This document shows, piece by piece, positions 6,429-39,036 of a stretch of 64,000 nucleotides of DNA. The position numbers and the translations under genes were made by a program. Location: positions 292,593 to 356,592 of the forward strand of contig JAAEQR010000142.1 in NCBI GenBank assembly GCA_024231215.1, given 5' to 3'. The notes under the pieces are model-generated. The model saw only the letters and a list, made by a program, of their open reading frames with translations, ran no database searches and was not told the origin of the DNA. Origin of the DNA: PVC group bacterium. Lineage in GTDB: Bacteria > Omnitrophota > Gorgyraeia > B26-G9. Position 1 is the stretch's first letter; the number at the start of each line of letters is the position of its first letter.

Positions 6429-6455
6429 AATACATTATGTTATAGTGTTACTACC

Positions 6456-10111: not shown

Positions 10112-10113
10112 CT

Positions 10114-11250: not shown

Positions 11251-11252
11251 CT

Positions 11253-12098: not shown

Positions 12099-12970
12099 TT
12101 CCCTTCCCCTCTTATCAGTAAGTATAGCTTTGTTGTAGAAACAGTTATAAAAACATTAACTAAAAAAGACATGCAAATCCCAGCAATCAAAACCAGGAAG
12201 ACAATTTCCGGAACAATGTTCTCCATCAAGGGGAAAAGCCTTGTTTTCAACAAAGCAACCGGCAAATATAATAATAAGGGCACAAGAACCAAAATAATCA
12301 CTGCTAAAAAATTTTTAAAAATATATCCTACATTACGAAACAATGCAACAATGAAGTTCTTCCCCTCTATAATAATTACAGGATGGGCAAAGATAAATAG
12401 GCTTTGCAGAAATCCCATGGTAATAATATTAATCGCCGTAAATATCAACATCCAGCCTTCCCTGCGTATATTCAGGAAGACCCGTCCCTTCATCATGATT
12501 TTAAGAAGCACTTTAGATTCAACCCAAAATGCGCCTTTAATTAAAAAAAACACTATTAAGGTAATCAAAAACAAGTGAATATATGAGACTAAAGATCGTT
12601 TTAGTGCCGCCTTCAAAGAAATCACCTTTGAACTGATTTTCTGCTGCACAAGATTAATCGTAACTCCGGCTATAAAAGTCCCCAGAATAATTGACAAAAC
12701 AACCTGAATATGAGAAAACCCCTTTGCCAGCAAAAGCAAATTATATGGATAATGAAAAAATTGTCTTCCGGCAAAACGCATGATTATTGGAGTAAAATAT
12801 TTCACCAACGGCGGCTGGATAGCAAAAAAAAGTATTATAATTGCACTTAGTTCTAAAAAGGCAAGCACCGCATACGGTAACATTATGCGATAATCACTTT
12901 TGATAATCGTCATAGCACTTAACCACGACTCGCGTATCAAACTCCATTGTGATTTTTTAATTTTGTCCAT
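12095..12970 (-). CDS. polytopic integral membrane protein of unknown function
   Basis: 291 aa with 6-8 predicted TM helices. First gene of the regulatory operon; overlaps the TPR gene by 4 nt. Confidence 0.5.
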   Translation of the reverse strand: MDKIKKSQWSLIRESWLSAMTIIKSDYRIMLPYAVLAFLELSAIIILFFAIQPPLVKYFTPIIMRFAGRQFFHYPYNLLLLAKGFSHIQVVLSIILGTFIAGVTINLVQQKISSKVISLKAALKRSLVSYIHLFLITLIVFFLIKGAFWVESKVLLKIMMKGRVFLNIRREGWMLIFTAINIITMGFLQSLFIFAHPVIIIEGKNFIVALFRNVGYIFKNFLAVIILVLVPLLLYLPVALLKTRLFPLMENIVPEIVFLVLIAGICMSFLVNVFITVSTTKLYLLIRGEGN

Positions 12971-13154: not shown

Positions 13155-13748
13155 TTAAGATTTTTTTCTTCTGTATCCAACTAATCCTAACAAAGCAGGC
13201 CCAAGCAATAACATAGTTGCAGGTTCCGGTACCGGTGTTGTAGCTGTAAGCTTCACTCCACGATTGTAATAATGACAATCAGGATCAAAACCTAAGCCAA
13301 CTATTCCATTTGAACCAAACTGCTGCAATGTATCAATCTGATCTGCTGTAAATGTATAGCTCCAATTGATGTAATAAGGATCGTTATCAACATATGTAGT
13401 AAGCAAATTTGTGCTTCCATTGTCTGCGAACTGATCTCCAGCAGTTGTATCCTGACCTACGAATACGCTCGGCACAATCCCTCCTGGAACTTTATCTAAC
13501 AGATGAATTGCCAACTGGTTGTCTGGATCTTCCCAGCCAGAATCATGAATCCCTCGGATAGATAATACCACGCTTTCTAAATTCCCAGGAACTTCGCTCC
13601 AATCCATACCCCATATATAATGATTCTCGTGTATCAGATCATGAAGATCTTTTGGATCCGGTTCAAAGATATATACAGCAGCATGAGCTGATGAAACAGC
13701 AGTTAATAGCATAGAACAAAAAATTACTACTCCAAGTATTTTTTTCAA
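13155..13748 (-). CDS. PEP-CTERM domain protein (exosortase substrate)
   Basis: N-terminal signal peptide. C-terminus VPEPATMLLLGPALLGLVGYRRKKS is the canonical PEP motif + TM helix + basic tail. Confidence 0.85.
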   Translation of the reverse strand: MKKILGVVIFCSMLLTAVSSAHAAVYIFEPDPKDLHDLIHENHYIWGMDWSEVPGNLESVVLSIRGIHDSGWEDPDNQLAIHLLDKVPGGIVPSVFVGQDTTAGDQFADNGSTNLLTTYVDNDPYYINWSYTFTADQIDTLQQFGSNGIVGLGFDPDCHYYNRGVKLTATTPVPEPATMLLLGPALLGLVGYRRKKS

Positions 13749-13792: not shown

Positions 13793-14608
13793 TTATTTTC
13801 TTTTCCTATATCCGGCCAATCCTAATAAAGCCGGTCCAAGCAAAAGCATAGTTGCTGGTTCTGGTACTGCCGCTGGATCAACATCAGCGTTGAGATTAAG
13901 ATAATCATTTCCACACTGCATTGCCCAATGAATATTTACCTCTGTATTTTCTTTAGGATCAATCCCTAAAGATGCCAATGGAATACATGCCTCTAATACA
14001 CGATGTGAATACTGATTCCCGCTGTAAACAAAATCAATTCTACCTTTATTGTCTCCGGTCTTTGCCCTTATTGCCCACGGATCAGCTTCAGAATGCTGCG
14101 AATACGCTGAGTCGTTCCATAAAGCATCATGATACAATCTTGCTGTACTGTTTTTTCTCTTATATGAACTTACATCCACCGCATATTCATAATCATCCAG
14201 CGCCCCAATGCTAATACCAATATCTCCCGGTAAAAACCAAGGATTGCCTGGAGCCGTAGCACCTTTAAACGGTAACCCGGTTACAATCGCGATATACGCA
14301 TTATCCTGGTCATTATCAAAGTACATTGCTTCTACATCAAATGCATTGCCTGAATATCCTGGTCCACCATAAGTATATCCAGGACCAACCTTAAACCAAC
14401 CTTGGGTTTTCTTAGATGCATTATCTTCGGTTACACAATCAACATTTGGACTCGAAGTAGGAACATTAATGTCTAAATATCCTTGTTGACGAGCTCCCTG
14501 CCCCCAGGTTATTCCCCAATCTGAAAGATCACCATCAACCACATACGCTGCATTTGCAGAAGGGATTACCAAAAACACGCTCAATAATACAATACCAAAC
14601 CACTTCAC
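13793..14608 (-). CDS. PEP-CTERM domain protein (exosortase substrate)
   Basis: Signal peptide. C-terminus VPEPATMLLLGPALLGLAGYRKRK. Confidence 0.85.
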   Translation of the reverse strand: MKWFGIVLLSVFLVIPSANAAYVVDGDLSDWGITWGQGARQQGYLDINVPTSSPNVDCVTEDNASKKTQGWFKVGPGYTYGGPGYSGNAFDVEAMYFDNDQDNAYIAIVTGLPFKGATAPGNPWFLPGDIGISIGALDDYEYAVDVSSYKRKNSTARLYHDALWNDSAYSQHSEADPWAIRAKTGDNKGRIDFVYSGNQYSHRVLEACIPLASLGIDPKENTEVNIHWAMQCGNDYLNLNADVDPAAVPEPATMLLLGPALLGLAGYRKRK

Positions 14609-15984: not shown

Positions 15985-16635
15985 TTACCCGAGGAGTCTT
16001 AAAAGGGACGGCATGCAGGTGTTAATAAAAGTTTTTAATCTTTGGAGAGCTTCTTGTTCATTATTATTGACGATTGCCGTGGAAATCCGAATCTGGCCTC
16101 CGCTAAGCGGAGATCTCTTTAAATAGGCTGTGATCAGCTTAAGACGCTGTTTAACATAACTGTCTGCAAATTCATCTCCGGCAATAAACCAATACAAATA
16201 AACCTGTTTATCTTTGTCTTTTTCAACCACAAGCTTATTTGCGGCCAGATCAAAGCTCTGTTGTTCTATATCAATCGAAATAATTTCTTTTGCTTTATGC
16301 GTAATTGTTCTTCCCTCACCTCGCAAACAATTCTCCGGAGGATCAGATGTCTTATGTGTACGTGCAGAAAAAATCAAATAGAATAATATCGGCGGCTCGT
16401 CTTCTTTCATATAATACCGCATGATTATATTTTTTGTCTCTAGAGCCGCATATATACTTTCCTTAAGCTGTACATCCTCAGATTTATAAACACCTATTTC
16501 CTGAGGCAAGTTAAAAACACTGCTATCCGGCGGTAATTCTGTCTCTGTTAATTTGACCCAAAGCGTAGCCGCTGCACCACAAAGCAATAGTATTACCAGA
16601 ACTAAAAACCGTTTATCCTTCATTTTTATCCTCAA
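15985..16635 (-). CDS. EpsI-family protein (exosortase-associated)
   Basis: About 200 aa with an N-terminal TM anchor. Overlaps the exosortase gene, the usual EpsH-EpsI arrangement. Confidence 0.5.
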   Translation of the reverse strand: MRIKMKDKRFLVLVILLLCGAAATLWVKLTETELPPDSSVFNLPQEIGVYKSEDVQLKESIYAALETKNIIMRYYMKEDEPPILFYLIFSARTHKTSDPPENCLRGEGRTITHKAKEIISIDIEQQSFDLAANKLVVEKDKDKQVYLYWFIAGDEFADSYVKQRLKLITAYLKRSPLSGGQIRISTAIVNNNEQEALQRLKTFINTCMPSLLRLLG

Positions 16636-17461
16636 GAAGCGATTTTTGCGTGGTTAATAAACCATTCATCGCCAGCATACCCAATGCCGCTACAGCAAAC
16701 AGAAGAAATCCAGAAAAATCATGCACCCATCCCTGCGCTGCTTTCATGCCATACACGTCACTTACCCAGCCTAGCAAAACTATTCGCATGACATTAGCCG
16801 CAATAGCAATCGGCAAAGCAGATAAAAACAGCAGCCATTTTTTCCATAAACTATTATTTGTTAAATAGGCAAATGCCGCACCAAAAGCCATTAGAGCAAT
16901 CAACGACCTTAATCCACTACAAGGAGCTTCCACCTCTAAATAGGAATTAGCCATATTGATTATACTCCCGTCCCGAACTGCCTCTAGACCTATCTTATTT
17001 AAAGCACTAGTCGCTAATTCTGCAGCAAATAATTTCATTTTTAAAACAATATTTGAAACCAAAACCATGGGCAAGGGAATCATAAACAAGAGATAAACAA
17101 TCGGAAAAAGCACTTCTTTTAAAGCACTCAATCCAACCATAAGCATAACAACCCCCATAATAAGAATAATCATAGAACAGGCAGAAATAAAGTAAAGATT
17201 TATAAATGTTCCGCCAAGATGGAAAACCAACGCTAGCACAATAAGTACAATACCTATATAAGAAGGATTTGTTTTTATTTCAGATAATGTGCTGCGTTTA
17301 CTCCAGATAAAAAATAAGCAGGCAATAATAATAAGAGGGCCATGACTATAGTATGTATCTTCGCTGTTCCATCTTCCCCACATCCAGTTAAACGCAGGAT
17401 AATAAATAGCCCCTAGTAAGGCTGTTATCAATAAAGTCTTGATCCAGGTAATGGTTTTCAT
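16613..17461 (-). CDS. exosortase (EpsH/XrtA family)
   Basis: 8-TM protein with the conserved YSHG motif near the N-terminus, a Cys in EAPCSGLRSL and a conserved Arg region, the exosortase catalytic signatures. Confidence 0.8.
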   Translation of the reverse strand: MKTITWIKTLLITALLGAIYYPAFNWMWGRWNSEDTYYSHGPLIIIACLFFIWSKRSTLSEIKTNPSYIGIVLIVLALVFHLGGTFINLYFISACSMIILIMGVVMLMVGLSALKEVLFPIVYLLFMIPLPMVLVSNIVLKMKLFAAELATSALNKIGLEAVRDGSIINMANSYLEVEAPCSGLRSLIALMAFGAAFAYLTNNSLWKKWLLFLSALPIAIAANVMRIVLLGWVSDVYGMKAAQGWVHDFSGFLLFAVAALGMLAMNGLLTTQKSLLEDKNEG

Positions 17462-17572: not shown

Positions 17573-20062
17573 TTACCGGCATAAAATCCGGCTTAAAGTA
17601 ATCAAAGGTTTCAAGCTAATTCTGATAATTTTACGTACTGCTGGTTTCTGTGCAATGCGATCGGCGATCGGAGGACTGTATGTATAATACAGTTTCACGA
17701 ATTTTCTGCCTAATGGATTAGTCAATAAGTAATCATCTCTAAACTCGCACAGAACTCGTACTTCTTTAGCCATCTTTGTTCCAAACGCTGCTGTAGCAAT
17801 AAAACATCCACCGCCGCCACCGCCGCCGCCAGAAGAACCACTTGCTGCTGCAGGAGGAGTGCTATCGCTATCGCCATCACTATCATCGCTATCTCCATCA
17901 TCTCCGGTATCAGTACTACCATCTGTTGAGTTAACGCCACCTATCGCATACATAGAAAAGTGAGTTGTAGGAACAGATACTTTTTTAGCCGCAACATCTA
18001 CAGTTGCACCGGGAACTTTTTCCCAAGCTGAAGTCGTAAGATTGTAATAATAGATGTTCAACGAAGACTCTTCCTCAATTCCGGCACTACTTAATTGAGC
18101 ACTAGTATAAGGAATAGTTATCGTTGCCGGAATATCAAACTCTGTTCCTCCCGGCCCGAAATCAACCACATTACCAACAATAAGAGTACTGCCTGTAGCT
18201 TCAGGAGCTGCTACTACTTGCGCTACCGTAATTGTAGTTGGCGCATCTATGGCTTGAGCACCTATGGCTACGCTTGTTCCAACAATGTTTCCTGTCTCAA
18301 CTAGTACGCTACCGCCAATCTCGTTATCTACTTTTTCCGCTTTAATTTCATCAGTAGTTAAAAACGTATTCCGGCAAAATTCAATTTCTTGTCTTCCTGA
18401 AGAGGTATCTGACCATGATACATAGTAATGACATCCTTGCGTATTTATCGCCAGAGAAGGATTATACTGCGTAGCCGTAGTATCAAACTGAGAGTATTCC
18501 TGGAATATATAATCCTGATAAGATGCTCCAGCTAATCCCACGCTGTAATTACCAGAACTATATTGCTGCCAAACAACTAAAGCATTTCCTTTAGTATCTA
18601 TGGCTAAATCATATGCCCCCAGAGAATCCGTACTTAAAATCGTTGCCGTACTATCCAGATTGTATAAGCTCTGTGCCTGGCTATACAGGTAACTAGCAAA
18701 CATCAAATCTCCAGCTTCTTTCCAAACCAGATATACATTATTTCCGTCAGAACTTACATCTAAAGCCGGCCCTTTATCTCCGGCTGTTGCAGCATTTGCT
18801 TCTACATCCGTCCCAAAACTTTCTCCGCAGTCAATTATATTCTTACTTGCACTATCAAAATAAATGCTATATGTACTATCATTGTTAACGCCATTCCAAG
18901 CTATAAATATCTTACTATTAGCATCCACCTCTATAGCCGGAGCAGCAGCTTTCTGCGGCCAGCGATCTTCATCTACTCGTAACGCTGTTCCTACAAATAC
19001 CTGCCATGCATCGGTATAATCTGCTGTTGTTCTAGTGTAATTTAAACTCGCATTACCACCATTCTCATCCACCCAACAAACATAAACAGTTGCCGGCTCT
19101 ACAGTCTGATCATCACCATCACCGGTAAGTGCCGCACCAACTGTCATTGCCGGAAATACCTGATTGCTTGTTCCTGCATCATTATATATCAGATGATTTA
19201 CTCCAAAAGCAGAACCAACAGCTTCTTTCCTAGATACATATATATCCCAGTCTCCTAAAACACTCATTTGCTGCCAAGCTACATAGATATTATTCTGGCT
19301 ATCTACTGCAATCGAAGGATACCGATCTTCTATTCCAACCGCAGAACTGTTAACTTTTATTGAAGATTGAAAACTAACTCCAAAATCAACTGACTGAGAA
19401 AAGTATATGTCCCATTCACCTTCAGTAGAACGTTCTTCCCATACCATATATACATTCTTACCATCATCAGAAGTAACTATGTGTGCTTTATCTTTCAAAG
19501 GTTCTACCGCAAATGATTCCATCATACCGCTTATAGAAACTTTTTTCTCTTTTCCGTAGATAAAATTTTGCGTTCTAAAATCGTATGTGTAAGCATTCAT
19601 CTGATTGCCCTCTAAATCTAATGCATCAACTTGAATCTCCACATTCTGCTTATAGATAAAATAATCGGCAGGATCATACATTATTACATACTCATTATTA
19701 GAGTTAACAATGATCTCTACATCATAATCTACGATCGATCCCTGCGAATCCGTATAACTCTGAACAACTCCATCTTCAATTATACTGACTCCCTCTACGG
19801 CAAGATCAATACTACTGCTATCAACCCCAATAATATCATCTTTTATACAAAGCTGAATGTTAGAATGAACCGGGATGTTGTTATTATTGTCTTGTGGAAA
19901 ACATCCATCAACATAAGGAGCATCATTATCAGCCCGCGTAGTGAAAGAATAAGTATCCGCTGTCATCTGATTAGCACAATAAGCATTAGCTGCGATCAAG
20001 AGCACCATCAAGCAGCTTATTGCCATTGTTATGATTTTTTTATTTTGTTTTGCATGTGTCAT
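17573..20062 (-). CDS. secreted surface protein 1: signal peptide, ANQMTAD N-terminal module, BNR/Asp-box-like beta-propeller repeats, Gly/Ser/Asp linker, conserved 'CFIATAAFG' C-terminal domain
   Basis: Signal peptide. Repeated Y[VL]VW.E...DIY.S.S.D.G.SF-type units. Acidic poly-G/S/D linker, then [12 protein letters not shown] and an ~80-aa tail shared with gene 25575-29087. Likely start is the ATG at 20060-20062, preceded by GAGGTGG. Confidence 0.7.
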
Positions 20063-20400
20063 CGTCCACCTCAAAAAAAGAGCCTGTTCTTGAAAGTTTT
20101 AGAACAGGCGTTTTCTTGAGTGCGGAACGGTTAGTACATAGTTTTATTTTCGACAGCTACGAGTTCCATACTATCCGCTATCACGCTACTTACTACTACT
20201 TATCACCTTCGGCAACCCAGCTGCCTTACTAGTCAATGGTCAATGGTCAATGGTCAATAGTTTAAACTTACTATCAGCCATTAGCTATCAACTATCAGCT
20301 AATGTAGGCCTGTGGCTTTGCTTCTCCGCCGCACTTGGCGGAGAAAGGCATTCACCTGTCCCATTCTTTCAAATGGTTTGCTATTATCGTGGTACACATT
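20063..20400 (-). promoter_or_regulatory. conserved 5' leader (copy A) with a GNRA hairpin, a covarying GC stem, heptad repeat arrays and a terminator-like hairpin + U-tract just 5' of the RBS
   Basis: Blocks shared with the leaders at 21382-21732 and 24999-25365: cacgataatagcaaaccatt[ct]gaaagaatggg, ggcctgtggctttgct, ttcggcaacccagctgcc. Hairpin gcctgttct/agaacaggc at 20082-20109 followed by U8. Confidence 0.6.
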
Positions 20401-20607
20401 TCAAAGTACAATTTTCACTTCTTATGTATTAAAAGCAATTACTATTCCAACAGTATCATTTATTGCGCATTTTATTAAATTCATAACCTCTTTATTTTCA
20501 AAACCTTGCAGCTTTGCAGTCATTTTATTTTTCATTAGCATCTTGCTGCCTCATTAAAACCTTAGAAAAATTTTTCTAAATCAGGAAATCAATTTCCGTT
20601 TTTCACG

Positions 20608-20647
20608 TTGGTAAGCGGTTAACGGGGCGCTGTTAACCGCTTACCAA
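20608..20647 (-). other. perfect 16-bp inverted repeat (stem-loop) 11 nt downstream of the gene-2 stop
   Basis: ttggtaagcggttaac-ggggcgct-gttaaccgcttaccaa. No U-tract, so it is not a canonical intrinsic terminator. Confidence 0.4.
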
Positions 20648-20658
20648 TATCCGTTGCG

Positions 20659-21381
20659 TTATATGGCTAAATCGCTGGCTTCTACACTTATATTCACTAC
20701 TTCTTCATTATCAAAATCTGCAGGAGGTGCATATGTTAAGGTATAATCCGCTGATGTTCCGGTTATCGTTGGTGTTACAGTCGTTCCATTAACTTTCATA
20801 ATAATCGTGTTAATATCTACTCCAGCACCATCATCAAGTACATGCACAACAATATCTGTATCCCTGGCCACTCCCGTAGCATTTTTAGCCGGGCTATGTC
20901 CGGTTGTATACGGTGGAGTTGTATCAGGAACCGCTGAGGTAGTTACATTAGGAATGTTAGATATAGATGAAATGTTTGATTCTTCATCAGAAGTTTTAAT
21001 CGCAAAATAGTATGCTGTCTCTGCCAATAACCCATTGACCGTCATACTTTCGTTGGACCCAGCAATACTAGGAGTAGGCTCTCCGCTCACTTGCGTTGCA
21101 CTAGCCCAATTACCTTCATTGATCACAGAGGTAGAATATCTCAAATCATAACTTGTAGCTGTTCCTGTACTCCCGTCATCACCCGGAGCTGTCCAGGAAA
21201 GAGTTGCAGAATTATGAGTTGAATCTGAAATTGCTAAATCCGAGACTGCCAAAGGAGCAATCAAATCATCTACGATCGTAAATGAATATACATCTGCAGT
21301 CATCTGATTGGCACTATACACATTCCCGGCGATACATAGAACCATTAAACTTGTGATTATAAAACTACTTATCTGCCTCAT
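20659..21381 (-). CDS. secreted surface protein 2 (signal peptide, ANQMTAD module, FN3-like domain, Big-like C-terminal domain)
   Basis: N-terminus matches gene 1 (ANQMTADVYSFT). The C-terminal ~90 aa match the C-terminus of gene 3 (TTPPYTTGH...VEASDLA) at both protein and DNA level. Confidence 0.6.
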   Translation of the reverse strand: MRQISSFIITSLMVLCIAGNVYSANQMTADVYSFTIVDDLIAPLAVSDLAISDSTHNSATLSWTAPGDDGSTGTATSYDLRYSTSVINEGNWASATQVSGEPTPSIAGSNESMTVNGLLAETAYYFAIKTSDEESNISSISNIPNVTTSAVPDTTPPYTTGHSPAKNATGVARDTDIVVHVLDDGAGVDINTIIMKVNGTTVTPTITGTSADYTLTYAPPADFDNEEVVNISVEASDLAI

Positions 21382-21732
21382 AATCTTACCTCATCCTCCT
21401 TCTCCGAAAAAAAATCCTGTCCTCGAATTTATATAGAGAACAGGCGTTTTCATCGGTCAGCGCTCACCCGCCCAGTCTTCTGACGAATTTAACGTATCAG
21501 TCATCCTGTACGCTAAACGCTGTTTTTTTTACCTTCGGCAACCCAGCTGCCCTGTCCGCCATTGCGAACTTGGGGCCTGTGGCTTTGCTCCCCGCCTTAA
21601 TCTCAGCAGGAAGGGCCTCTTGACAGCCAATCCATCAAATTCATTTGTCATTTGTAACTCGACATTTGTAATTCAGGCTTTGCCTGTCGCCCGTCCCATT
21701 CTTTCGAATGGTTTGCTATTATCGTGTATAAC
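21382..21732 (-). promoter_or_regulatory. conserved 5' leader (copy C) with a terminator-like hairpin + U-tract 5' of the RBS
   Basis: Shared blocks at 21531-21551, 21574-21596 and 21688-21726. Hairpin cctgtcctc/gagaacagg at 21415-21445 with U8. Confidence 0.55.
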
Positions 21733-21752
21733 CCCTTTTAAAAGGGGTATTT

Positions 21753-24700
21753 TTAAGGAGCGAGGTCACTCGCTTCTACACTTACGCTTACCACCTCCCC
21801 ATTAGCAAATTGTGAACCCGGCGCATAAGTTAAAGTGTAATCAGCCGGAGTTCCGGTTATCGTTGGTGTTACAGTCGTTCCGTTAACTTTCATTACAATT
21901 GTATTAATATCAACTCCATCACCATCATCTTTTACATGAACTACAATATCTGTATCCCTGGCTATAGCAATAGCATTTTTAATCGGATCATGTCCGGTAG
22001 TGTATGGCGGAATTGTATCCGGCAAGATTATAGTTTCTTTGGCCTCGGCATTAGCACTATTGGAAAGACCGGAAGTATTCGGAACCTCATCCTGTGTTTT
22101 CATCGCAAAGTAGTATGTTGTACCCGGAGTAAGGCTGCTTACAGTCATTGATTCAGATGTACCGGCAACACTAGGTGTAGGCTCTCCGCTAACATCACTT
22201 GCCGCATTAAATAAAGTATCATTAGTTATGTCTGACGTTGAATACTTAATTATATATACAGAAGCCGTTCCGCTTGTCCCGTCATCTCCGGGAGCTGTCC
22301 AAGTCAAATCAATTTCTCCGTCAGCTGAACCAGTCACCGCACTTAAGTTACTCACTGCTGCTGGTGCAGTAGAATCACCCCCAGCTGCTACCTTTTCATA
22401 AGCACCAATATCATATATCCCGTTTTGCGGCCGCGAAACTTCCAAAAGATCATCATCTACATATGCGCTTAAATTTGCACCCTGATTCACTGCCGGACCT
22501 CCAGCCTTTAATTGATAATTATCCGCACCCGGATTTTCAAAAACTTCAGAAGAGGTCGCGACAACAGAGTTATCGTCCTGATTATAATTGTTCTGCCAAC
22601 TAGTTAAACTTACTAAACTTCCGGTAGGATCCTCTATATTTGTAACAATATTGTAATCACTGTCTAAACCCGACATACTTTCAGGATCTACGGCAAGACT
22701 ATCCTGCCCTCCTTCATGTATCAATATATTGTTCTTGACTTCATTACCCGTACTTCCGTTACGCAATGAAAAAGCATGCGCTCCGCCGGAAGGAACAATT
22801 ACCGTATTGTTAAAATATTTATTATCCTTACTGCCGTAAGCATCTCCTACTCCATCATCCCAACTTGCGATACCATGCTGTTGATTACCATAAACCAAAT
22901 TATTTATAATCACTGAATTGCGAATAGACGCAAAATTTAATCCGCTTGTTCCGTTGTTATAAACAATATTACTATCTACTATCGCGTTTGTAATAATCCC
23001 GTCACCTTCTTCAGCCGGGTCTGCGTTTATTTGGATTCCACCCCGGTAATTATCATAACTCGTATTACCTCTGACTATCGGATTGTCACCGCTATTCGCT
23101 ACATAAATTCCATGTGTATTTCCTGATCCCCACACTTCGTTATTTTCAATCAAGGCATCAACTGCGAACGAAGTAGAAATTCCTACAGATCCCATATTTG
23201 ATATTCGACAGTTTTTTATCTCTATTCCCAGGATATCATCTCCCGAATCCTTAGATATTCTTACCCCACGATCACTGCTTCCAGACTCTCCAATCATCCG
23301 AAATCCATCTATAGTTACATAATTTCCAGTGACATGAATTACTGCAGACCTTGCTTCGTATGCAACATTGCTGTTTAATATAACATTGCTGTTTGCAGCT
23401 CGAAAAGTTATCCTGTCTGTAGCCGTTCCCGCAGTACTAATCACAAATCCATCGTAAGTACCTGTCTGTACAATTACAGTATCTCCGCCAACTACAGTAT
23501 CTGCTGCATGCTGAATGGTTTCCCAGGGATTCCCCAGAGATCCATCATCACCGTTATCTCCACTCTCAGCCACATAATAAGTATCTCCATCATACGGATT
23601 TTCATTACCTAAATAATTCCATATATAATCGGTAAATGTCTCACTATCCGCACAGAATCCTCTCTCATGATCAGTTGTGGCTGGAGAATCTCCATAATAG
23701 GCATATGACTCTCTCATTTCATTATACATACGATCTTGATACGGCCAAGACCATAAATCATCAGCCGTCAAGACCCCATCTACATACCTTTTGATAACAT
23801 TTGCCCCTCGATCAACATCCCCTTGACCTGTCCCATCACAAGCAGAGCTATCTTCAATTCTAAGGGGATACAATATTCCCGAATCTCCAGTTAAAGCATT
23901 AGTTCCATAAGTTGCCCCGGAATTATCAAAATAGCAATAACTATCCGCTTTATCTGCCCTACTACAATTTTTAAATAAACAATTAGTAACATTTATACCT
24001 GAGCTCGAAGTAGTGTCTATTACGTCTCCAGATGATCCAATAAAAGTACATCTATCAATACTGAATGACGGATTAACTCTACAATTAACAAAAACACTTT
24101 CAGATGTTCCCACTCCCACACAATCAAGTAATCCATAAGTCATATCAGAATCTAAATTAAACGGTCTAAAATTTCCCGTATTAATTGCAATACAACCATA
24201 AATTTTATTATTACTTGAACCGCTTCTGTGCCTAAATGCAGCCCCTGCAGACCCGCTATCCGCAAAATCAATCGCAATACAATTCTCAAAAATTGAATTC
24301 TCTGCGCCATAAAAAGTAAATCCATTCTCGCCTTGGGAATCATCCTGAACTCCATCAAAACGCACCACAACACGCCTTATAGTTATGTTTGCTGTATGTG
24401 GACCGTCAGGATATTTACCATATAAACTAACTCCCGACCGACAAACCCCCCAAAACCAACAATCCTCAACTAAGCAATACTCAGCATAGTTCCCTACTTC
24501 TAATAAAGCATCCGTAGCACCTCCTGCATTTCTCCCACTACAACGCTGTATTATAATATTATTCACTCTGTTCGCATCATCAGCCCCTGAAATAACAATA
24601 ACCCCATCATTCGATTCTCTGCCATAAATCCCTTGAACAGTAATATACGAATGAGAACCAGTTATATTTATAGGAATCCGTGAACCTCCGCCATCTATAA

Positions 24701-24998
24701 TTACGCCTCCATCTGTCTCCGCTAAAATATATGTAGGCGCCCCATCTGAACCGCTTACAGGATCAACAATATTACTACCGCTGTAATCATATATGCCATT
24801 TTTATAAATCAAAGTATCTCCACCGCTCATTACCGAATTTGCATGGCTAAAAGTTCTCCAGGCATTATTATAACTGCCGTCGCCACTACCATCATTCCCA
24901 CTCGGAGAAAGATAATACGTAGCAGCAAAAAGTGAATCCGCCTGAACAATAGCTACGATACTACAGATTATTAGAATAAATATTATTTTTATTTTCAT
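21753..24998 (-). CDS. secreted surface protein 3 (signal peptide; parallel beta-helix domains X and Y; FN3; Big-like C-terminal domain)
   Basis: Right-handed beta-helix (pectate-lyase/NosD-like) repeat patterns (NNIVYNNGTSGLNF, NNLVYGNQQHGIA, GNTSYDNYRGGIQIN), FN3-like LTWTAPGDDG...YYFAMKT, and a Big-like terminal domain. The same domains occur in swapped order in gene 4. Confidence 0.75.
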   Translation of the reverse strand: MKIKIIFILIICSIVAIVQADSLFAATYYLSPSGNDGSGDGSYNNAWRTFSHANSVMSGGDTLIYKNGIYDYSGSNIVDPVSGSDGAPTYILAETDGGVIIDGGGSRIPINITGSHSYITVQGIYGRESNDGVIVISGADDANRVNNIIIQRCSGRNAGGATDALLEVGNYAEYCLVEDCWFWGVCRSGVSLYGKYPDGPHTANITIRRVVVRFDGVQDDSQGENGFTFYGAENSIFENCIAIDFADSGSAGAAFRHRSGSSNNKIYGCIAINTGNFRPFNLDSDMTYGLLDCVGVGTSESVFVNCRVNPSFSIDRCTFIGSSGDVIDTTSSSGINVTNCLFKNCSRADKADSYCYFDNSGATYGTNALTGDSGILYPLRIEDSSACDGTGQGDVDRGANVIKRYVDGVLTADDLWSWPYQDRMYNEMRESYAYYGDSPATTDHERGFCADSETFTDYIWNYLGNENPYDGDTYYVAESGDNGDDGSLGNPWETIQHAADTVVGGDTVIVQTGTYDGFVISTAGTATDRITFRAANSNVILNSNVAYEARSAVIHVTGNYVTIDGFRMIGESGSSDRGVRISKDSGDDILGIEIKNCRISNMGSVGISTSFAVDALIENNEVWGSGNTHGIYVANSGDNPIVRGNTSYDNYRGGIQINADPAEEGDGIITNAIVDSNIVYNNGTSGLNFASIRNSVIINNLVYGNQQHGIASWDDGVGDAYGSKDNKYFNNTVIVPSGGAHAFSLRNGSTGNEVKNNILIHEGGQDSLAVDPESMSGLDSDYNIVTNIEDPTGSLVSLTSWQNNYNQDDNSVVATSSEVFENPGADNYQLKAGGPAVNQGANLSAYVDDDLLEVSRPQNGIYDIGAYEKVAAGGDSTAPAAVSNLSAVTGSADGEIDLTWTAPGDDGTSGTASVYIIKYSTSDITNDTLFNAASDVSGEPTPSVAGTSESMTVSSLTPGTTYYFAMKTQDEVPNTSGLSNSANAEAKETIILPDTIPPYTTGHDPIKNAIAIARDTDIVVHVKDDGDGVDINTIVMKVNGTTVTPTITGTPADYTLTYAPGSQFANGEVVSVSVEASDLAP

Positions 24999-25365
24999 AT
25001 TTCCCCCTTAAAAAAAATACCTGTCTTCAGAAGTTAGAGAACAGGCGTAGTTCTAGTATATATAGAGTAATAGATATTATTCTCCTATACACTATTTTCC
25101 ATTCGGCAACCCAGCTGCCTTATCAGTCAATGGTCAATAGTCAATGGTTAATAGTTTTAATTCATATCAGCCATTAGCTACCAACTATCAGCTAATGTAG
25201 GCCTGTGGCTTTGCTCCTCCCGCCGTATTTTGGCGGGGAGAGGGCGTCCGCCCGTCCCATTTTTTCAACCCCGAATGAAGCAACCCTTCCAGGATACTCT
25301 TCGGGGTGCCGATGCGTTTCTCCCTAAGAGAACTACATTCGGCAATGGTTTGCTATTATCGTGGT
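24999..25365 (-). promoter_or_regulatory. conserved 5' leader (copy B) with an ~75-nt insertion inside the GNRA-hairpin stem and a terminator-like hairpin + U-tract 5' of the RBS
   Basis: Shared blocks at 25102-25120, 25127-25216 and 25243-25363. Covarying stem ctcccgcc/ggcgggag. Hairpin plus A8 (U8 on the minus strand) at 25010-25048. Confidence 0.6.
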
Positions 25366-25574
25366 TCTAATTTCTTTCAAAAAACAATGCTTCTTTTTCT
25401 ATACCGTATAACAAGAAGCAATTTTTATACCACTAATACAACAAATTTATTATAATGCTCTCACGCCTTTAACTCTATATTTGCAAACAAATTAAGAATA
25501 AAAAATATACTAAAATTACTTTTCAGCAAAATGTAAAAAAACAAATTTCCAGAAAATATTTTCCATTGAAGAAA

Positions 25575-28500
25575 TTATTTTCCATTTAGCATACTTCTGG
25601 CTACGCTAATTAAAGGATGCAAAACACTTCTTACAACTGCTTTGATTTCTTCTTTTTCCTTTATATACTCAGCTACATCAGGACTACACTTATAATATAC
25701 CCCGACAAAAAGTTTTCCGCAAGTATTACTCAGTAAATACTTATCTCTGAATCGACATAAAGTAACAACTTCATCAGCCAACGAAGTTCCAAAAGCTGCC
25801 GTAGCTATAAAACAAAGCCCGCCATCATCGCTGCTGCTGCCACCACCACCTGCCGCAGCAACATCGCCTTCGCCATCACCACCCCCATCACTACTTTCTG
25901 GGGTAATCGCACTGGCTGGATTTGAATATCCAGAACAAGCATGGTCATTATACGAACGTATTCGATAATTATATTTTGTTCCCAAACTGCGCCCTGTATC
26001 TATGTAGATATTAGTGTCAGGATCAGTAATATCAATTTCTGTATTACCTGCAATAAATTCAACACTTCTCTCTATTTTAAAACCATCGATACCAACCGAA
26101 TTATCTTCCCACGCAAGAGCAATACAATTATCGTTTATTAATTGAGCTGTAAGATTAGATGGTGTGGCTAACGTATATCCTGTTGTAGCATAAGCTTCAT
26201 TAGAATACGCTGTTTTCTCTGTAGAGTCATAGACTGCTCTGACTTGATAATAGTATGTAGTATTTCCAGCTAAGCTTCTATCGTCATAAGCTATTACATT
26301 TTGCCCCACAGTAGCTATCCGAACATATGTTCCTCCCACACCTTTTTTTCTTTCTATTTCAAATCCATCTTCCCCTTGAGCATTGTCCTTCCAATCTAAT
26401 CTTATCTCACTTAATGATACAGATCGAGCCGTTAGTTCTGAAGGGGGATATACCGGAGGAGGAGGATTGCTTAAGTACCCCCATACATAGGAAGTCAGAG
26501 TTTGCGTATCCGCACAAAATCCTCTTTGTGCATCTACAGTTGGAGGAGTACTCCCTGCTGGCGGTGTTATAGACTCCCTCATTTCCAACTTTATTCTATT
26601 TTCATTCGGCCAGGGCCATAAACTAGTTTGAGTCAATGTCCCGTTAACATATCGATTTAACACATTTGCTCCTCGATCAACACCACCTTGACCTGTCCCA
26701 TCACAAGCAGAGCCATCCTCAATTTTAATGGAGTAAAGCAACCCTGAATCACCACTTGAAGCATTAGTTCCATAATCCGAGCCAGAATTATCATAATGAC
26801 AATAACTATCCGCTTCATCTCCACTACCACAATTTTTAAACAGACAATTAGTAACATTTACACCTGAACTTGAAGTAGTATCTAAAACATCACCCGATGA
26901 TCCGATAAAAGTACACCTATCAATATTAAATTCTGGATTAATTCTACAATTAACAAAAACACTTTTAGTTGTTCCCACGCCCACACAATCAAGTAATCCA
27001 TAAGTCATATCAGAATCTAAATTAAACGGTCTAAAATTCCCCGTATTAATTGCAATACAACCATAATATTTATTATCACTTGACCCGTCTCTATGTCTAA
27101 AGCCAGCTCCAGCATTAGCCCCATTTGCAAAATCAATAGCAATACAGTTTTCCAAAATAGAATCATCGGCTCCGTAAAATGAGAATCCATTCTCTCCCTG
27201 AGAACCATCTTGAACCGCATCAAACCTGACTACTACTCTGCGCACTATAATATTATTTGTATGAGGACCTGCGGGATACTTACCATATAAGAGCACACCT
27301 GTTCGGCAAACTCCCCAAAACCAACAATCTTCTATTAAACAATACTGTGCATAATTACCAATACTACAAATAGCATCTGTAGCACCCCCGGCATTTTTAG
27401 CTCCAACACGTCTTATTTCTATATATTCGGCTCTATGATTATCGTCTACTCCGCTTACATCAATGACCTCATCGCTGGAATTATAACAATAAAATCCTTC
27501 AATCCTAATATATCTGGGAATATATGAACCTTCTCCAGTAATATCAATCGGAATACGGCTACCGATACCATTAATTTTCGCTTGCCCGTCATGTTCAGCT
27601 TTAATTGTAGTATATGCAACAGCACTTCCACTTACAGGATCAACAATATTACTCCCGGGATAATCATAAATACCATCTTTATAAATAAGAGTATCCCCAC
27701 CACTCATCTGAGAGCTAGCTTGGGTAAATGTCCTCCAGGGATTATTATAGCTGCCGTCACCGCTGGAATCACTTCCAATCGGTGAAATATAATAAGCTCC
27801 GCTTAATGTGTTTTCATATGTACCTATATCATACACAAAAGCCTGCGGCCGAACAACTCCCAATAAGTCAAAATTAACATCACCGCTTAAATTTGCTCCC
27901 TGATCTATCGCCGGACTCCCAGCTTTTAATTTATAATTATCTGACCCAGGATTTTCAAACACGGAAGAAGCCGTTGCAACAATAGAATTATTATCCTGAT
28001 TATAATTATTCTGCCAACTAGTTAAACTTACTAAACTTCCTGTTGGATCTTCAATATTAGTAACTATATTATAATCGCTGTCTAAACCAGCCATACTTTC
28101 TGTATCTACGGCAATACTGTCCTGGCCGCCTTCATGTATCAATATATTGTTCTTTACGACATTACCCGTACTTCCGTTACGCAATGAAAAAGCATGCGCT
28201 CCCCCGGAAGGAGCCACCACTGTATTATTTAAATATTTATTGTCTTTGCTCCCATAACTATCTCCTGCTTCATCATCCCAACTTGCAATACCATGCTGTT
28301 GATTATCATAAACCAGATTGTTCCTGATCAATGAGTTACGGATAGACGCAAAATTTAATCCACTTGTCCCGTTGTTATAAACGATATTATTTTCTACCAA
28401 AGCATTGGTAATTATCCCATCACCTGCCTCCAGCGGATCTGCGTTTATCTGGATTCCGCCTCTATCATTATTATAGCTCGCATTACCTCTGACTATCGGA

Positions 28501-29087
28501 TTGTCACCGCTATTAGCTACATAGACTCCATGCGTATTTCCTGAACCCCACACCTCGTTATTTTCAATCAAAATATCAACTGCAAACGAAGTAGATATCC
28601 CCACAGATCCCATATTTGATACTCGACAGTTTTTTATCTCTATTCCCAGGATATCATCTCCTGAATCCTTAGATATCCTTATCCCGCGATCATTGCTTCC
28701 AGATTCTCCAATCATCCGAAATCCATCAATAGTTACATAATTTCCAGTGACATGAATTACGGCAGATCTTGCTTCGTAGGCAACATTAGTATTTAAGACA
28801 ACACTGCTGTTTGCAGCTCGGAAGGTTATTCTGTCTGTAGCAGTACCTGCGGTGCTGATCACAAATCCATCGTAAGTACCCGTCTGTACAATTACAGTAT
28901 CTCCGCCAACTACAGTATCTGCTGCATGTTGGATGGTTTCCCAGGGATTACCCAGAGATCCGTCATCGCTGTCAGATCCGCCCTCTGAAACATAATAGTC
29001 CGCAGCAAAGGAAAATGGAGTAAAGAGGACAGAAAGCGCAAGAATACACAGATTGGCTAGTAAAAAGATTTTTAAATTTTTACTCAT
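25575..29087 (-). CDS. secreted surface protein 4 (signal peptide; beta-helix domain Y then X; two FN3 domains; G/S/D linker; 'CFIATAAFG' C-terminal domain)
   Basis: Domain Y (aa ~30-440) is nearly identical to gene 3 aa ~470-900; domain X likewise. Two FN3-like units (WKDNAQGEDGFEIERK; WEDNSVGIDGFKIERS). C-terminal [14 protein letters not shown]... tail shared with gene 1. Confidence 0.75.
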   Translation of the reverse strand: MSKNLKIFLLANLCILALSVLFTPFSFAADYYVSEGGSDSDDGSLGNPWETIQHAADTVVGGDTVIVQTGTYDGFVISTAGTATDRITFRAANSSVVLNTNVAYEARSAVIHVTGNYVTIDGFRMIGESGSNDRGIRISKDSGDDILGIEIKNCRVSNMGSVGISTSFAVDILIENNEVWGSGNTHGVYVANSGDNPIVRGNASYNNDRGGIQINADPLEAGDGIITNALVENNIVYNNGTSGLNFASIRNSLIRNNLVYDNQQHGIASWDDEAGDSYGSKDNKYLNNTVVAPSGGAHAFSLRNGSTGNVVKNNILIHEGGQDSIAVDTESMAGLDSDYNIVTNIEDPTGSLVSLTSWQNNYNQDNNSIVATASSVFENPGSDNYKLKAGSPAIDQGANLSGDVNFDLLGVVRPQAFVYDIGTYENTLSGAYYISPIGSDSSGDGSYNNPWRTFTQASSQMSGGDTLIYKDGIYDYPGSNIVDPVSGSAVAYTTIKAEHDGQAKINGIGSRIPIDITGEGSYIPRYIRIEGFYCYNSSDEVIDVSGVDDNHRAEYIEIRRVGAKNAGGATDAICSIGNYAQYCLIEDCWFWGVCRTGVLLYGKYPAGPHTNNIIVRRVVVRFDAVQDGSQGENGFSFYGADDSILENCIAIDFANGANAGAGFRHRDGSSDNKYYGCIAINTGNFRPFNLDSDMTYGLLDCVGVGTTKSVFVNCRINPEFNIDRCTFIGSSGDVLDTTSSSGVNVTNCLFKNCGSGDEADSYCHYDNSGSDYGTNASSGDSGLLYSIKIEDGSACDGTGQGGVDRGANVLNRYVNGTLTQTSLWPWPNENRIKLEMRESITPPAGSTPPTVDAQRGFCADTQTLTSYVWGYLSNPPPPVYPPSELTARSVSLSEIRLDWKDNAQGEDGFEIERKKGVGGTYVRIATVGQNVIAYDDRSLAGNTTYYYQVRAVYDSTEKTAYSNEAYATTGYTLATPSNLTAQLINDNCIALAWEDNSVGIDGFKIERSVEFIAGNTEIDITDPDTNIYIDTGRSLGTKYNYRIRSYNDHACSGYSNPASAITPESSDGGGDGEGDVAAAGGGGSSSDDGGLCFIATAAFGTSLADEVVTLCRFRDKYLLSNTCGKLFVGVYYKCSPDVAEYIKEKEEIKAVVRSVLHPLISVARSMLNGK

Positions 29088-29188: not shown

Positions 29189-30352
29189 CTATTTTTGCAT
29201 ATATTGCCCTAATAAATCAAGGAATTTTATAATAATATTTTTCCAAGTATATTCCTTCATCGTGATCTTATATCCTCGCTGGGCATATTCCTGAGCCAGG
29301 GTATTATTAGCTAGAACCATGTTTATACTTTGGACCATTTCCTCCGGGGTATCAGCAAAAAATATAAAATCCTGGTTAATCTTCTCTACCTCGATAAGAC
29401 GATTGCTAATTACCGGCTTTTTCATGATCAAATATTCAAACAGCTTTAAGGGGCAGGCATTATGCGATACCGGGATAAGTTTAAACACATTAAGACAGAT
29501 ATCCATCTCCTTAATATAATAGCCAATTTTAGAATGCGGCACCGCACCAGTAAAAATCATGTTTTTTAACTGCCGTTTTTCAGCCTCCGCTTTTACCATT
29601 GAAAAATCCCGACCGCTGCCAACCATTAAAAAAGTCACCTCGGGCATCTTTTGGGCAGTATTAATAATTAAGTCAAAATCAATAAAATACTCAAAAGAAC
29701 CAACAAATCCAATCACAGGCTTAGAACAATCAATCTGAGGAGCTTCGGCCTCATTCAGCCTAAAATCATCTTCCTCTGCCCCATTCGGCACAACTTCCAC
29801 TGCCGCTGTCTCATGCCGAATTAAATCAGCCAAAGCATGGGAGACAGATAAAGTAAGATCTACTTTTGAAATCATGCTATGAATAAAAAAATCCGCAATA
29901 TCCAGAGTTAAACGATTACTGAAACGTCCTAACTCATGTTTAAGCATTTCCCGATAATCATCTGCATAATCGAAAATCTTAAAACATTTGCAAAGATTCA
30001 ACAATGGATATTGCGGAATATTATACAAAAACAATACATCTATTTCATGCTCTGCTACTATTTTTTTAACTGCCCGACGACAGCAAAAACTGTAGTAACC
30101 TTTTTTAAATAACTTATTAAAAGGTACAGTCCTACGCCAAAGAGCCTGATTAACATCAACATCAATAAGATGCAGCTTTTCAGGAAGATCTACTTCTATC
30201 TCCTGAAAGTTTGTCTCCCGGACATCTGTAGATGCAGGCGGCTGCAAAACATAGACATCATGACCCATTCTAGCTAATCGGGTAAACAGCTGATGATAAC
30301 GAGTCCAGTTGACCGCTTTCCAGCGAGCCATATAAGGAAAAAGGAATTTCAT
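29189..30352 (-). CDS. glycosyltransferase family 4 (GT-B, group 1)
   Basis: C-terminal Glycos_transf_1-like region (GSFEYFIDFDLIINTA...LNVF...CPLKLFEYL). Confidence 0.75.
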   Translation of the reverse strand: MKFLFPYMARWKAVNWTRYHQLFTRLARMGHDVYVLQPPASTDVRETNFQEIEVDLPEKLHLIDVDVNQALWRRTVPFNKLFKKGYYSFCCRRAVKKIVAEHEIDVLFLYNIPQYPLLNLCKCFKIFDYADDYREMLKHELGRFSNRLTLDIADFFIHSMISKVDLTLSVSHALADLIRHETAAVEVVPNGAEEDDFRLNEAEAPQIDCSKPVIGFVGSFEYFIDFDLIINTAQKMPEVTFLMVGSGRDFSMVKAEAEKRQLKNMIFTGAVPHSKIGYYIKEMDICLNVFKLIPVSHNACPLKLFEYLIMKKPVISNRLIEVEKINQDFIFFADTPEEMVQSINMVLANNTLAQEYAQRGYKITMKEYTWKNIIIKFLDLLGQYMQK

Positions 30353-31185
30353 CTATTCACACCTCTCCTTGAACCATTCCCACGTTTAAGCTTACGAATA
30401 ACCTCATATAGTCCAGGATATTTCTGCAAAACCTGTCTCATTTTACGTAACGGCATCCAAAGATAATATCTCACACGACTAAGCAAAGACAGTCGCCAGC
30501 CCATCCCTTCCTGAACAGCACAGATACATGGATTACAAATGCCGCAAGCGCTACCATTAGCGCGCGGACGATGGCAAAACCAAGTAAGTTGCATAAATTC
30601 ACGAAACCCTTCTTTTCTCGAAATAGTATCCATATCAACTTTCGTAAGATTAAAAATCGGAAACCGAAAATTCTTAAATACCTCAAATACGTCAACATCT
30701 TTATATTTTCGATCAATTTCAAAGCAAGCGTCTTCACCAGCCCCAGAACAAAGCATGCCTGGTTTCAATACACTAAAAACTCTACCATCCTTATCGGCTA
30801 CAGACATCTCCAAATCTTCAAGCCCCTCTTCATTCGCAAATCTAGCCAACCAATCATACTGAGATCCAATACCCTTTCTATCCCTAATTAATTCAAAGCT
30901 CTGTGTAATCTTCAGGTTTGGCAAGATATCATTCATTTCCTTGTAGCGAGTCGGCCGCAAAAGATCTTTTATTTGAGGATGCTTAGAAAATAAACGTTGT
31001 TTTATATCTTTCATCGCACGCAGTTCCAAACCGGTCGAACAGCGATCTGAATCAATTATATAATACGGCTGAACAACCTTCTCCTTTACCAGCAGCAGAT
31101 CAAGCAATCTAAACGTTGAATCCCATCCACCAGTCCATAACAAATTGACTATTTGCCGTTGCACAATTTCATTAGAATTCATCAC
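30349..31185 (-). CDS. QueC/ExsB-like PP-loop ATP pyrophosphatase family protein
   Basis: N-terminal LLWTGGWDSTF (a variant of the SGGxDS PP-loop) and a C-terminal Cys cluster (CGICNPCICAV), like the QueC zinc site. Similarity is modest. Confidence 0.45.
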   Translation of the reverse strand: MMNSNEIVQRQIVNLLWTGGWDSTFRLLDLLLVKEKVVQPYYIIDSDRCSTGLELRAMKDIKQRLFSKHPQIKDLLRPTRYKEMNDILPNLKITQSFELIRDRKGIGSQYDWLARFANEEGLEDLEMSVADKDGRVFSVLKPGMLCSGAGEDACFEIDRKYKDVDVFEVFKNFRFPIFNLTKVDMDTISRKEGFREFMQLTWFCHRPRANGSACGICNPCICAVQEGMGWRLSLLSRVRYYLWMPLRKMRQVLQKYPGLYEVIRKLKRGNGSRRGVNR

Positions 31186-39035: not shown

Positions 39036-39036
39036 C

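Follow-up and report, generated by a model that had tools for sequence, protein, structure and literature searches.

Split Big_5 domains in a conserved, riboswitch-preceded Omnitrophota gene cassette point to a possible surface structure joined by donor strands

We analysed a stretch of 64,000 nucleotides (nt) from a PVC group bacterium of the lineage Omnitrophota (contig JAAEQR010000142.1, positions 292,593 to 356,592; hereafter the window), which contains four neighbouring minus-strand genes, called g4, g3, g2 and g1 from upstream to downstream, for proteins composed of beta-helix, FN3, Ig-like Big_5 and C-terminal domains (Table 1). They form a cassette with conserved synteny in Omnitrophota (PVC group) and probably encode parts of a modular cell-surface structure. 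In the g2 and g3 proteins, a Big_5 domain is cut short by the stop codon immediately ahead of its last (G) strand, and a peptide homologous to this strand opens the predicted mature g2 and g1 proteins. With guarded confidence, we interpret the region as a riboswitch-controlled cassette for a modular surface structure whose parts would be joined through the split Ig domain by trans-complementation.

The Big_5 domains of g2 and g3 match positions 1-89/90 of the 105-position Pfam profile, and both proteins stop after DLAx. The initial annotation had read the two ends correctly (..VEASDLAI and ..VEASDLAP, each followed by a stop codon) and had placed them immediately after the Big domain; more precisely, they lie inside it. 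The mature N-termini of g2 (ANQMTADVYSFTI) and g1 (of the type ANQMTADxYSFT) resemble the end of the complete Big_5 domain of g1, and g3 has no such donor peptide. With the donor peptide of g2 or of g1 added behind the C-terminal domain of either g2 or g3, the Big_5 match reached position 104-105 of 105. The score rose from 23.2 to 28.1 or 29.8 bits for g2 and from 17.1 to 22.6 or 24.6 bits for g3 (gains of 4.9 to 7.5 bits), as against 23.9 and 18.3 bits with scrambled-peptide controls (gains of 0.7 and 1.2 bits, respectively).

Many tandem Big_5 arrays of other organisms came up in a full HMMER search with the truncated Big_5 domain. At the domain boundaries of the arrays inspected (25 boundaries are listed from P0241-P0243, among 341 regular-expression matches, with position-wise composition), ..V.V.VDASDLA runs directly into GNAMxTxSYSFTTxPDTTPPY... 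Because ASDLA continues in these arrays straight into a donor-like strand, the break in the cassette genes falls precisely between strands F and G. Signal-peptidase cleavage at the predicted sites ..VYS/ANQM and ..AFA/ANAM regenerates the array boundary. Homologous loci, designated here by L numbers, include one in which the two pieces are continuous: L014 (JAGYOO010000097.1, 2-2863) has an in-frame fusion of a g2-like FN3-Big_5 protein with a g1-like protein, and its Big_5 domain is complete: the strand that the window genes encode separately is part of it. The fusion junction, ..VNVSIAASDESGNVMSAEEWTFSVATDLTAPV.., is colinear with the split pair, that is, with ..VNISVEASDLAI before the stop codon plus a stretch of 22 residues.

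The split is conserved on both of its sides. The sequence A-x-D-L-A, followed by one or two residues and the stop codon, is invariant in 19 of 19 aligned g2-family proteins (54-71% identity), and the donor peptide AN.M..D.YSFTI is kept in all 15 of them whose N-terminus is present and aligned (the count leaves out P0196, P0202 and P0203, which lack the region, and P0206, which has a different N-terminus). A signal peptide and a donor are found in 7 of 7 g1-like orthologues; the g3-like orthologues have no donor and end with DL(A/G)x before the stop codon (7/7). Additionally, L006 encodes a minimal subunit of 127 amino acids (aa) at 11365-11748, which has the pilin-like architecture of a signal peptide, a donor and a truncated Big_5 domain.

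The C-terminal domain of g4, which the initial annotation had left unnamed, is the 69-aa CFI-box-CTERM domain (NCBIfam NF041770), and the same domain ends g1. Both are full-length profile matches, with 99.4 bits for g1 and 88.5 bits for g4 against a curated cut-off of 40 bits, and the NCBIfam scan found no such domain in g2 or g3. In six frames of the window, the donor motif occurs twice (g1 and g2), the acceptor end twice (g2 and g3) and the CFI motif twice (g1 and g4).

The g4, g3 and g2 proteins are identical to proteins of the source genome (locus tags GY853_08540 for g4 and GY853_08535 for g3), and the closest relatives all come from metagenome-assembled genomes (MAGs) of Candidatus Omnitrophota. 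Contigs with g2 homologues were scanned for motifs and domains. The order that recurs, in at least eight other MAGs of Omnitrophota type, is g4-like, g3-like, g2-like, g1-like, and then the exosortase genes EpsH/EpsI; all of the cassette is present in L005, L006 and L010, and part of it on the shorter contigs L003, L004, L008, L009 and L015. The g4-like orthologues consist of a head, FN3 and CFI (X-FN3-CFI, X being one of two beta-helix heads), the g3-like of one or more heads, FN3 and a truncated Big_5, the g2-like of a donor, zero to two FN3 and a truncated Big_5, and the g1-like of a donor, Big_5, a repeat region and CFI. Since the same gene order and architectures recur in other MAGs, each gene of the window has its own orthologues.

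Individual loci depart from this scheme in detail. L006 (CAYTGV010000017.1) is labelled Planctomycetia, and its g3-like and g4-like genes have a non-X head, with an identical printed N-terminal stretch in both. In L005 (JACQZH010000035.1), the g4-like gene lies in two overlapping open reading frames (ORFs; 4472-4909 and 4875-6842), which may reflect a frameshift, a pseudogene or a sequencing error. In L004 (JBDRJV010000037.1, 2-4708), the g4-like position is occupied by a single 1568-aa protein that has an X head, FN3, a complete Big_5, a g1-like repeat region and a CFI-box, and in which head and base are thus joined covalently.

In an AlphaFold2 (AF2) model of mature g2, the FN3 domain is confident and Big_5 is less so, and the donor peptide is an unpaired coil (predicted local distance difference test score [pLDDT] of about 64). 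The donor strand of g2 is therefore not predicted to fold back on its own Big_5 domain. The model fits a strand destined for a partner and is compatible with, though no proof of, trans-complementation. A Foldseek search with the mature g2 model retrieved only generic FN3/Ig tandems.

The main rival explanation is that the split is a relic of gene fission: an ancestral long protein (head, FN3, Big_5, FN3, Big_5, Big_5, ..., CFI) would have been broken up into pieces that work singly, as secreted or matrix enzymes active on polysaccharides or as adhesins, with no re-association. Fused forms do exist (the L014 fusion and the 1568-aa protein of L004), the truncated Big_5 of the g2 model folds with a pLDDT of 71-89 without the strand, and no assembly machinery is seen in the window. 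Leftovers of a fission should decay, yet the stop position and A-x-D-L-A are the same in all 19 proteins, and every orthologue with an available N-terminus retains the 13-residue peptide there, at overall identities of 45-70%. The minimal subunit of L006 consists of nothing but a donor and an incomplete domain. An Ig fold minus its G strand exposes its core, as in pilins, which also speaks against pieces that stay single. Because the split features have been conserved over the long term, we disfavour the relic and regard it as rather unlikely.

The initial annotation had described the four genes as a mosaic family of giant secreted proteins with near-identical DNA segments, such as recombination or cassette shuffling produces in variable surface proteins, and the region as assembly-prone. 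Its ORF positions and its boundaries of the X and Y segments in g3 and g4 are right; the domain orders of g3 and g4 were borne out by blastp, Pfam and NCBIfam, with matches obtained for FN3, Big_5 and the beta-helices. The g2 protein does combine the N-terminal ANQMTAD module of g1, including the signal peptide, with a g3-type FN3-Big_5 part (63% aa and 70% nt identity to g3). The proteins are not giant, at 240-1170 aa, and the repeats are not nearly identical in DNA sequence: the Y copies share 84.8% over 1187 ungapped nt and the X copies 74.4% over 1232 nt, with longest exact runs of 47 nt (Y), 59 nt (X) and 32 nt (g2 versus g3). With ratios of nonsynonymous to synonymous divergence (dN/dS) of 0.12 for Y, 0.19 for X and 0.27 for FN3-Big_5, the copies are old paralogues under purifying selection.

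Synonymous divergence (dS) points to gene conversion between the heads. Between the copies, dS is 0.63 for Y and 1.18 for X. Along X, it forms a mosaic typical of gene conversion: the N-terminal half is saturated, the C-terminal half has values of 0.3-0.8, and one 120-nt tract stands out as a candidate recent conversion (Table 1). The g3-like and g4-like X heads of the same genome are 55-81% identical (five genomes), and heads of different genomes are 27-40% identical, save for 51-64% between the close relatives L008 and L010. The g4-like head of L008 is nearer to the L010 heads (63-64%) than to the g3-like head of its own genome (55%), and the g3 head of L010 is nearer to the g4 head of L008 than to the g3 head of L008. 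The heads thus diverge fast between genomes and are homogenised within genomes by gene conversion, on an evolutionary and not a physiological time scale.

Among 99 classifiable homologues of g4, the order X-Y occurs in 11 proteins including g3, and Y-X in g4 only; gene order and architecture are kept across MAGs. Since Y-X is unique to g4, the g4-like orthologues have no Y, and dS is lower for Y than for X, we conclude that g4 gained a lineage-specific copy of the Y domain of g3 at its N-terminus (the g3-like orthologues of L008 and L010 are X-Y-FN3-Big_5). The modules shared among g1-g4 have two sources, namely functional complementarity (donor and acceptor, anchor) and concerted evolution of the heads.

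Recombination has therefore left traces in the form of head conversion, the dS mosaic and the copied Y domain, and the question is whether these reflect ongoing cassette shuffling, as in antigenic or phase variation. A family diversified in that way would account for the low-dS tract, for heads that are homogenised within and very divergent between genomes, for leader segments of g1 and g3 that are 92-96% identical, and for the unique domain order of g4. Repeats at 74-85% identity with exact runs of at most 59 nt, purifying selection, and the conserved synteny and architecture across MAGs all argue against it. No silent cassettes were seen in the six-frame window, where the donor, acceptor-end and CFI motifs each occur just twice, no inverted repeats were found, and no recombinase domain among the window ORFs scanned with Pfam. 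We reject this explanation as improbable. Still less credible, and likewise rejected, is the proposal that the X/Y duplication or the Y-X order is an artefact of a chimeric or collapsed assembly. The source is indeed a short-read MAG, and the Y-X order has no counterpart among the 99 homologues. The copies, however, differ at 15-26% of positions, and each is intact, in frame and under purifying selection; their junctions lie exactly at domain boundaries, and the order g4-g3-g2-g1 is reproduced in independent assemblies. At such repeat identities, the region is not prone to misassembly.

The genes g3, g2 and g1 are each preceded by a leader with a GEMM-I or GEMM-I-like riboswitch aptamer (Table 1), and the sequence upstream of g4 contains no riboswitch leader. 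The leaders of g2 and g1 score 38.2 and 37.7 bits with Rfam RF01051, above the gathering score of 35 bits, and that of g3 scores 32.8 bits, below it. Like GEMM-I (RF01051) and GEMM-Ib members, the leaders keep the aptamer consensus, with equivalents of A47 and C92 and, in g1 and g2, the GAAA tetraloop of P2, as well as a downstream intrinsic terminator. The terminator hairpins lie just before the ribosome-binding site (-14.1 kcal/mol, z -3.25 for g1; -13.1 kcal/mol, z -2.75 for g2); they were missed by a consensus terminator scan, because their loops exceed its 8-nt limit, and were folded separately. Unlike in typical GEMM-I members, an additional hairpin separates P2 from the GCAAAGCC junction of the leaders, P3 contains long insertions (in g3, P2 does too), and A replaces G at the ligand-contact position G20 of Vc2.

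This A is present in all three leaders of the window (motif GATAATAGCAAACC, 5' ends at 20392, 21727 and 25363) and in most orthologous leaders (L003, L006, L009, L010 and L013 among them), and G is found in three g1-like leaders (L005, L006 and L015). An A at the G20 position is a signature of cGAMP-sensing or bispecific GEMM-Ib members (PMC6140456, PMC5888326). In several other loci, the 5' motif likewise precedes g2-like and g1-like genes. RF01051 matches in other MAGs comprise one above the gathering score (L002 4811-4909, 39.3 bits, before a g1-like gene) and two below it. Between the leaders of g1 and g3, a stretch of about 120 nt is 92-96% identical (20208-20327 versus 25102-25220, minus strand), a higher value than for any coding segment, and the genes behind these leaders are unrelated. 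The shared stretch is an insertion in the P3 arm, in which the RNA-strand (ACCAUUG)x4 repeats the 5' half of the P2 stem and might act as a competing pairing partner.

Both g3 and g4 carry the same two heads of pectate-lyase fold, X and Y. The AF2 model of X has a predicted template modelling (TM) score of 0.83, and its N-terminal 250 residues are confident. Its best structural match is the PL9 lyase Pel9A (1ru4; E 2.7e-6, TM 0.52/0.58), followed by a PL9 rhamnogalacturonan lyase and PL6 alginate and chondroitin lyases; sequence identity to these solved lyases is 9-15%, and a sequence search of X against the Protein Data Bank (PDB) gave a marginal match only. Y matches Beta_helix/NosD and, weakly, the C5-epimerase AlgG. 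The central part of g1 (window 18300-19560, aa 170-600) has repeats of the type ..VY(V/M)(A/V)W..(D)WDIY(F/V)S.. with an Asp-box-like S-x-D-x-G-x-S-F, which suggests a sialidase-like beta-propeller; this region has no Pfam match and no sequence match in the PDB, and the search of g1 as a whole against the PDB likewise returned none. For g1, the start codon ATG 20062 (829 aa), with GAGGTGG in front, is likelier than the TTG 20074 chosen by the ORF finder, which falls within the U-run of the leader terminator.

Of the 51 window ORFs with 120 aa or more, 44 were scanned with Pfam, and the matches place the cassette within a large Wzx/Wzy and exosortase exopolysaccharide (EPS) locus. Downstream of g1 follow EpsH and EpsI, a gene for a sugar transferase and two for PEP-CTERM proteins, and then the genes of a TPR protein, a GAF histidine kinase and a sigma-54 response regulator. 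Upstream of g4, about 100 nt from it, begins a set of genes for GT4 glycosyltransferases, a Wzy-like polymerase, a flippase, a deacetylase, an enzyme of the UDP-glucose/GDP-mannose dehydrogenase family, a Wzc-like pair and Wza. The dehydrogenase-family enzyme could supply a uronic-acid sugar, and with it in the locus it is plausible that the X and Y heads would act on a uronate-containing EPS. The ORFs at 30349-31185, 35875-37170, 38460-39957, 48266-49261 and 12095-12970 of the EPS locus have no Pfam match. The PEP-CTERM motif PF07589 has no match in any of g1-g4, and we rejected these proteins as exosortase substrates; we also rejected a reading as prophage tailspikes, as the surroundings are an EPS locus. 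The proteins encoded at 7605-12098 of the window (PocR/GAF, sigma-54 response regulator, GAF histidine kinase and TPR) form a set that we take to resemble the PrsK/PrsR/PrsT regulators typical of PEP-CTERM/exosortase loci. The locus may thus have two regulatory layers, a two-component system and the riboswitches.

Table 1. Features of the cassette and its surroundings in the window (window coordinates)
Feature	Coordinates	Strand	Description
g4	25575-29087	minus	Coordinates exactly as in the initial annotation; Pfam/NCBIfam and blastp
g4 parts			Signal peptide; Y beta-helix 27810-28997 (aa 31-426); X beta-helix 26448-27809 (aa 427-880); two FN3 25863-26447; Gly-rich linker; CFI-box-CTERM 25608-25814
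g3	21753-24998	minus	Proposed tip subunit; Pfam/NCBIfam and blastp
g3 parts			Signal peptide; X 23595-24938 (aa 21-468); Y 22392-23579 (aa 474-869); FN3 22089-22358; Big_5 minus last strand 21756-22019; end ..ASDLAP
g2	20659-21381	minus	Proposed adaptor/shaft subunit; Pfam/NCBIfam and blastp
g2 parts			Signal peptide; donor peptide ANQMTADVYSFTI 21274-21312; FN3 20983-21249; Big_5 minus last strand 20662-20925; end ..ASDLAI
g1	17573-20062	minus	Proposed base subunit; ORF-finder version 17573-20074
g1 parts			Signal peptide; 13-residue donor peptide 19937-19975; complete Big_5 19571-19930; repeat region of about 420 aa; weak ZU5-like match; Gly-rich linker; CFI-box-CTERM 17600-17806
g3 leader	24999-25363	minus	GEMM-I-like aptamer 25102-25363 with large P2 and P3 insertions; hairpin and U-run 25010-25046 directly before the start codon
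g2 leader	21382-21727	minus	GEMM-I aptamer 21534-21727 with inserted hairpin; terminator 21407-21444
g1 leader	20075-20392	minus	GEMM-I aptamer 20208-20392 with inserted hairpin and 66-nt P3 insertion containing (ACCAUUG)x4; terminator 20075-20109
Candidate recent gene-conversion tract in g3 X	24090-24209	minus	Partner in g4 26955-27074; dS 0.08; same-codon use 95%
Exosortase EpsH	16613-17461	minus	Directly downstream of g1
EpsI/DUF3485	15985-16635	minus	Same neighbour in related loci, as for EpsH
PEP-CTERM proteins (PF07589)	13155-13748 and 13793-14608		Neighbouring ORFs downstream of g1

We propose the following model. After Sec export, donor-strand complementation would link the subunits. 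The Big_5 domain of g3, and possibly that of another g2, would be completed by the strand at the N-terminus of g2, and the Big_5 domain of g2 by the strand at the N-terminus of g1. The product would be a beads-on-a-string array, g3-(g2)n-g1, with an enzyme-bearing tip, an adaptor or extendable shaft, and a base anchored by the CFI-box. The g4 protein would be the covalent, one-piece format, in which the same heads are fused to FN3-FN3-CFI. The heads would probably cut or modify a uronate-containing polysaccharide made by the locus, and cyclic-dinucleotide levels would set the amount of each subunit. It is possible, and we suggest it more tentatively than the joining through split domains, that Omnitrophota and perhaps other PVC bacteria build an undescribed fibre independent of chaperone and usher, a tandem Big_5 array split into separately secreted, riboswitch-controlled subunits (an exchangeable lyase-like tip, an extendable adaptor and a CFI-box base), with length and composition tuned by cyclic dinucleotides.

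Several observations weigh against this model. We infer strand insertion in trans from sequence, the gain in Big_5 score from the donor peptide is modest in absolute size, and a fission relic would at first leave the same sequence pattern. Among the ORFs scanned, there is no domain of a PapD-like chaperone or an usher, and no other dedicated gene for assembly or for export across the outer membrane of a diderm was found in the window. The CFI-box-CTERM domain has no obvious transmembrane helix. As for the leaders, the A at the G20 position makes the ligand ambiguous (it could be 3'3'-cGAMP, c-di-GMP or both), the g3 hairpin is weak (-10.9 kcal/mol, z -0.93, with 33 of 200 shuffles as stable), and the minimum-energy folds of the full leaders hold aptamer and terminator together, so that they do not tell an ON switch from an OFF switch.

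In chaperone-usher pili (Fim/Pap and the archaic CupE), an Ig-like subunit without its C-terminal G strand receives the strand from the N-terminal extension of the next subunit (PMC10104325). The cassette resembles these pili in having an acceptor-only putative tip (g3), a putative shaft that is both donor and acceptor (g2) and a donor-only putative terminator (g1). It differs from them in that the split domain is Big_5 instead of a pilin fold, in its extra FN3 domains, its enzyme-like beta-helix tip heads, its CFI-box base and its exosortase/EPS locus. As neither PapD-like nor usher domains were found among the window ORFs scanned, the cassette is no chaperone-usher system, though it may work like one. 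The secreted, biofilm- or matrix-associated proteins TasA of Bacillus subtilis (PMC9674648) and archaeal cannulae (bioRxiv 10.1101/2024.12.30.630787) polymerise by N-terminal strand insertion and have no dedicated chaperone. These are homopolymers of unrelated folds, whereas the proposed fibre is heteromeric, derives from a broken tandem Ig array and belongs to a diderm candidate phylum.

The tandem Big_5 (PF13205) surface proteins share with the cassette the domain itself and the boundary ..ASDLA GNAM..YSFTT PDTTPPY.., and are colinear with it; they are one polypeptide, whereas at two F/G boundaries of the cassette the array breaks off with a stop codon and resumes after a riboswitch leader and another signal peptide. 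As in alginate-type EPS loci, with their periplasmic epimerase AlgG and lyase AlgL, proteins of beta-helix lyase/epimerase fold are encoded inside the polymer locus. Unlike in those loci, the heads are carried on stalks of FN3/Ig domains that end in a CFI-box or a split Ig domain, and they come in two delivery formats. The cassette also differs from contingency and antigenic-variation loci in its lack of near-identical repeats, inverted repeats and, as far as the scans reached, silent cassettes and recombinases. Literature searches on CFI-box-CTERM, on Big_5 with donor strand and on Omnitrophota with exosortase returned nothing relevant and no description of such a system; when donor strand was paired with exosortase, the sole result was a review of archaeal cell surfaces.

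Donor-strand complementation operates in chaperone-usher pili, in type V pili, in TasA and in a small number of archaeal filaments; here, its logic appears to have arisen by the breaking of an ordinary tandem Ig-repeat adhesin. The apparent domain shuffling in the four genes is mostly functional modularity and not hypervariation. Omnitrophota are an uncultivated phylum of very small bacteria, and their surface biology is almost unknown. If our interpretation is true, it would provide a rule for searching metagenomes, namely a protein that stops at ..DLAx inside Big_5 together with a partner that starts with AN.M..D.YSFT after its signal peptide. It would also give the CFI-box-CTERM domain its first functional context, add a new class of genes to those under GEMM-I riboswitches, and mean that enzyme heads are kept alike in two delivery formats through gene conversion.

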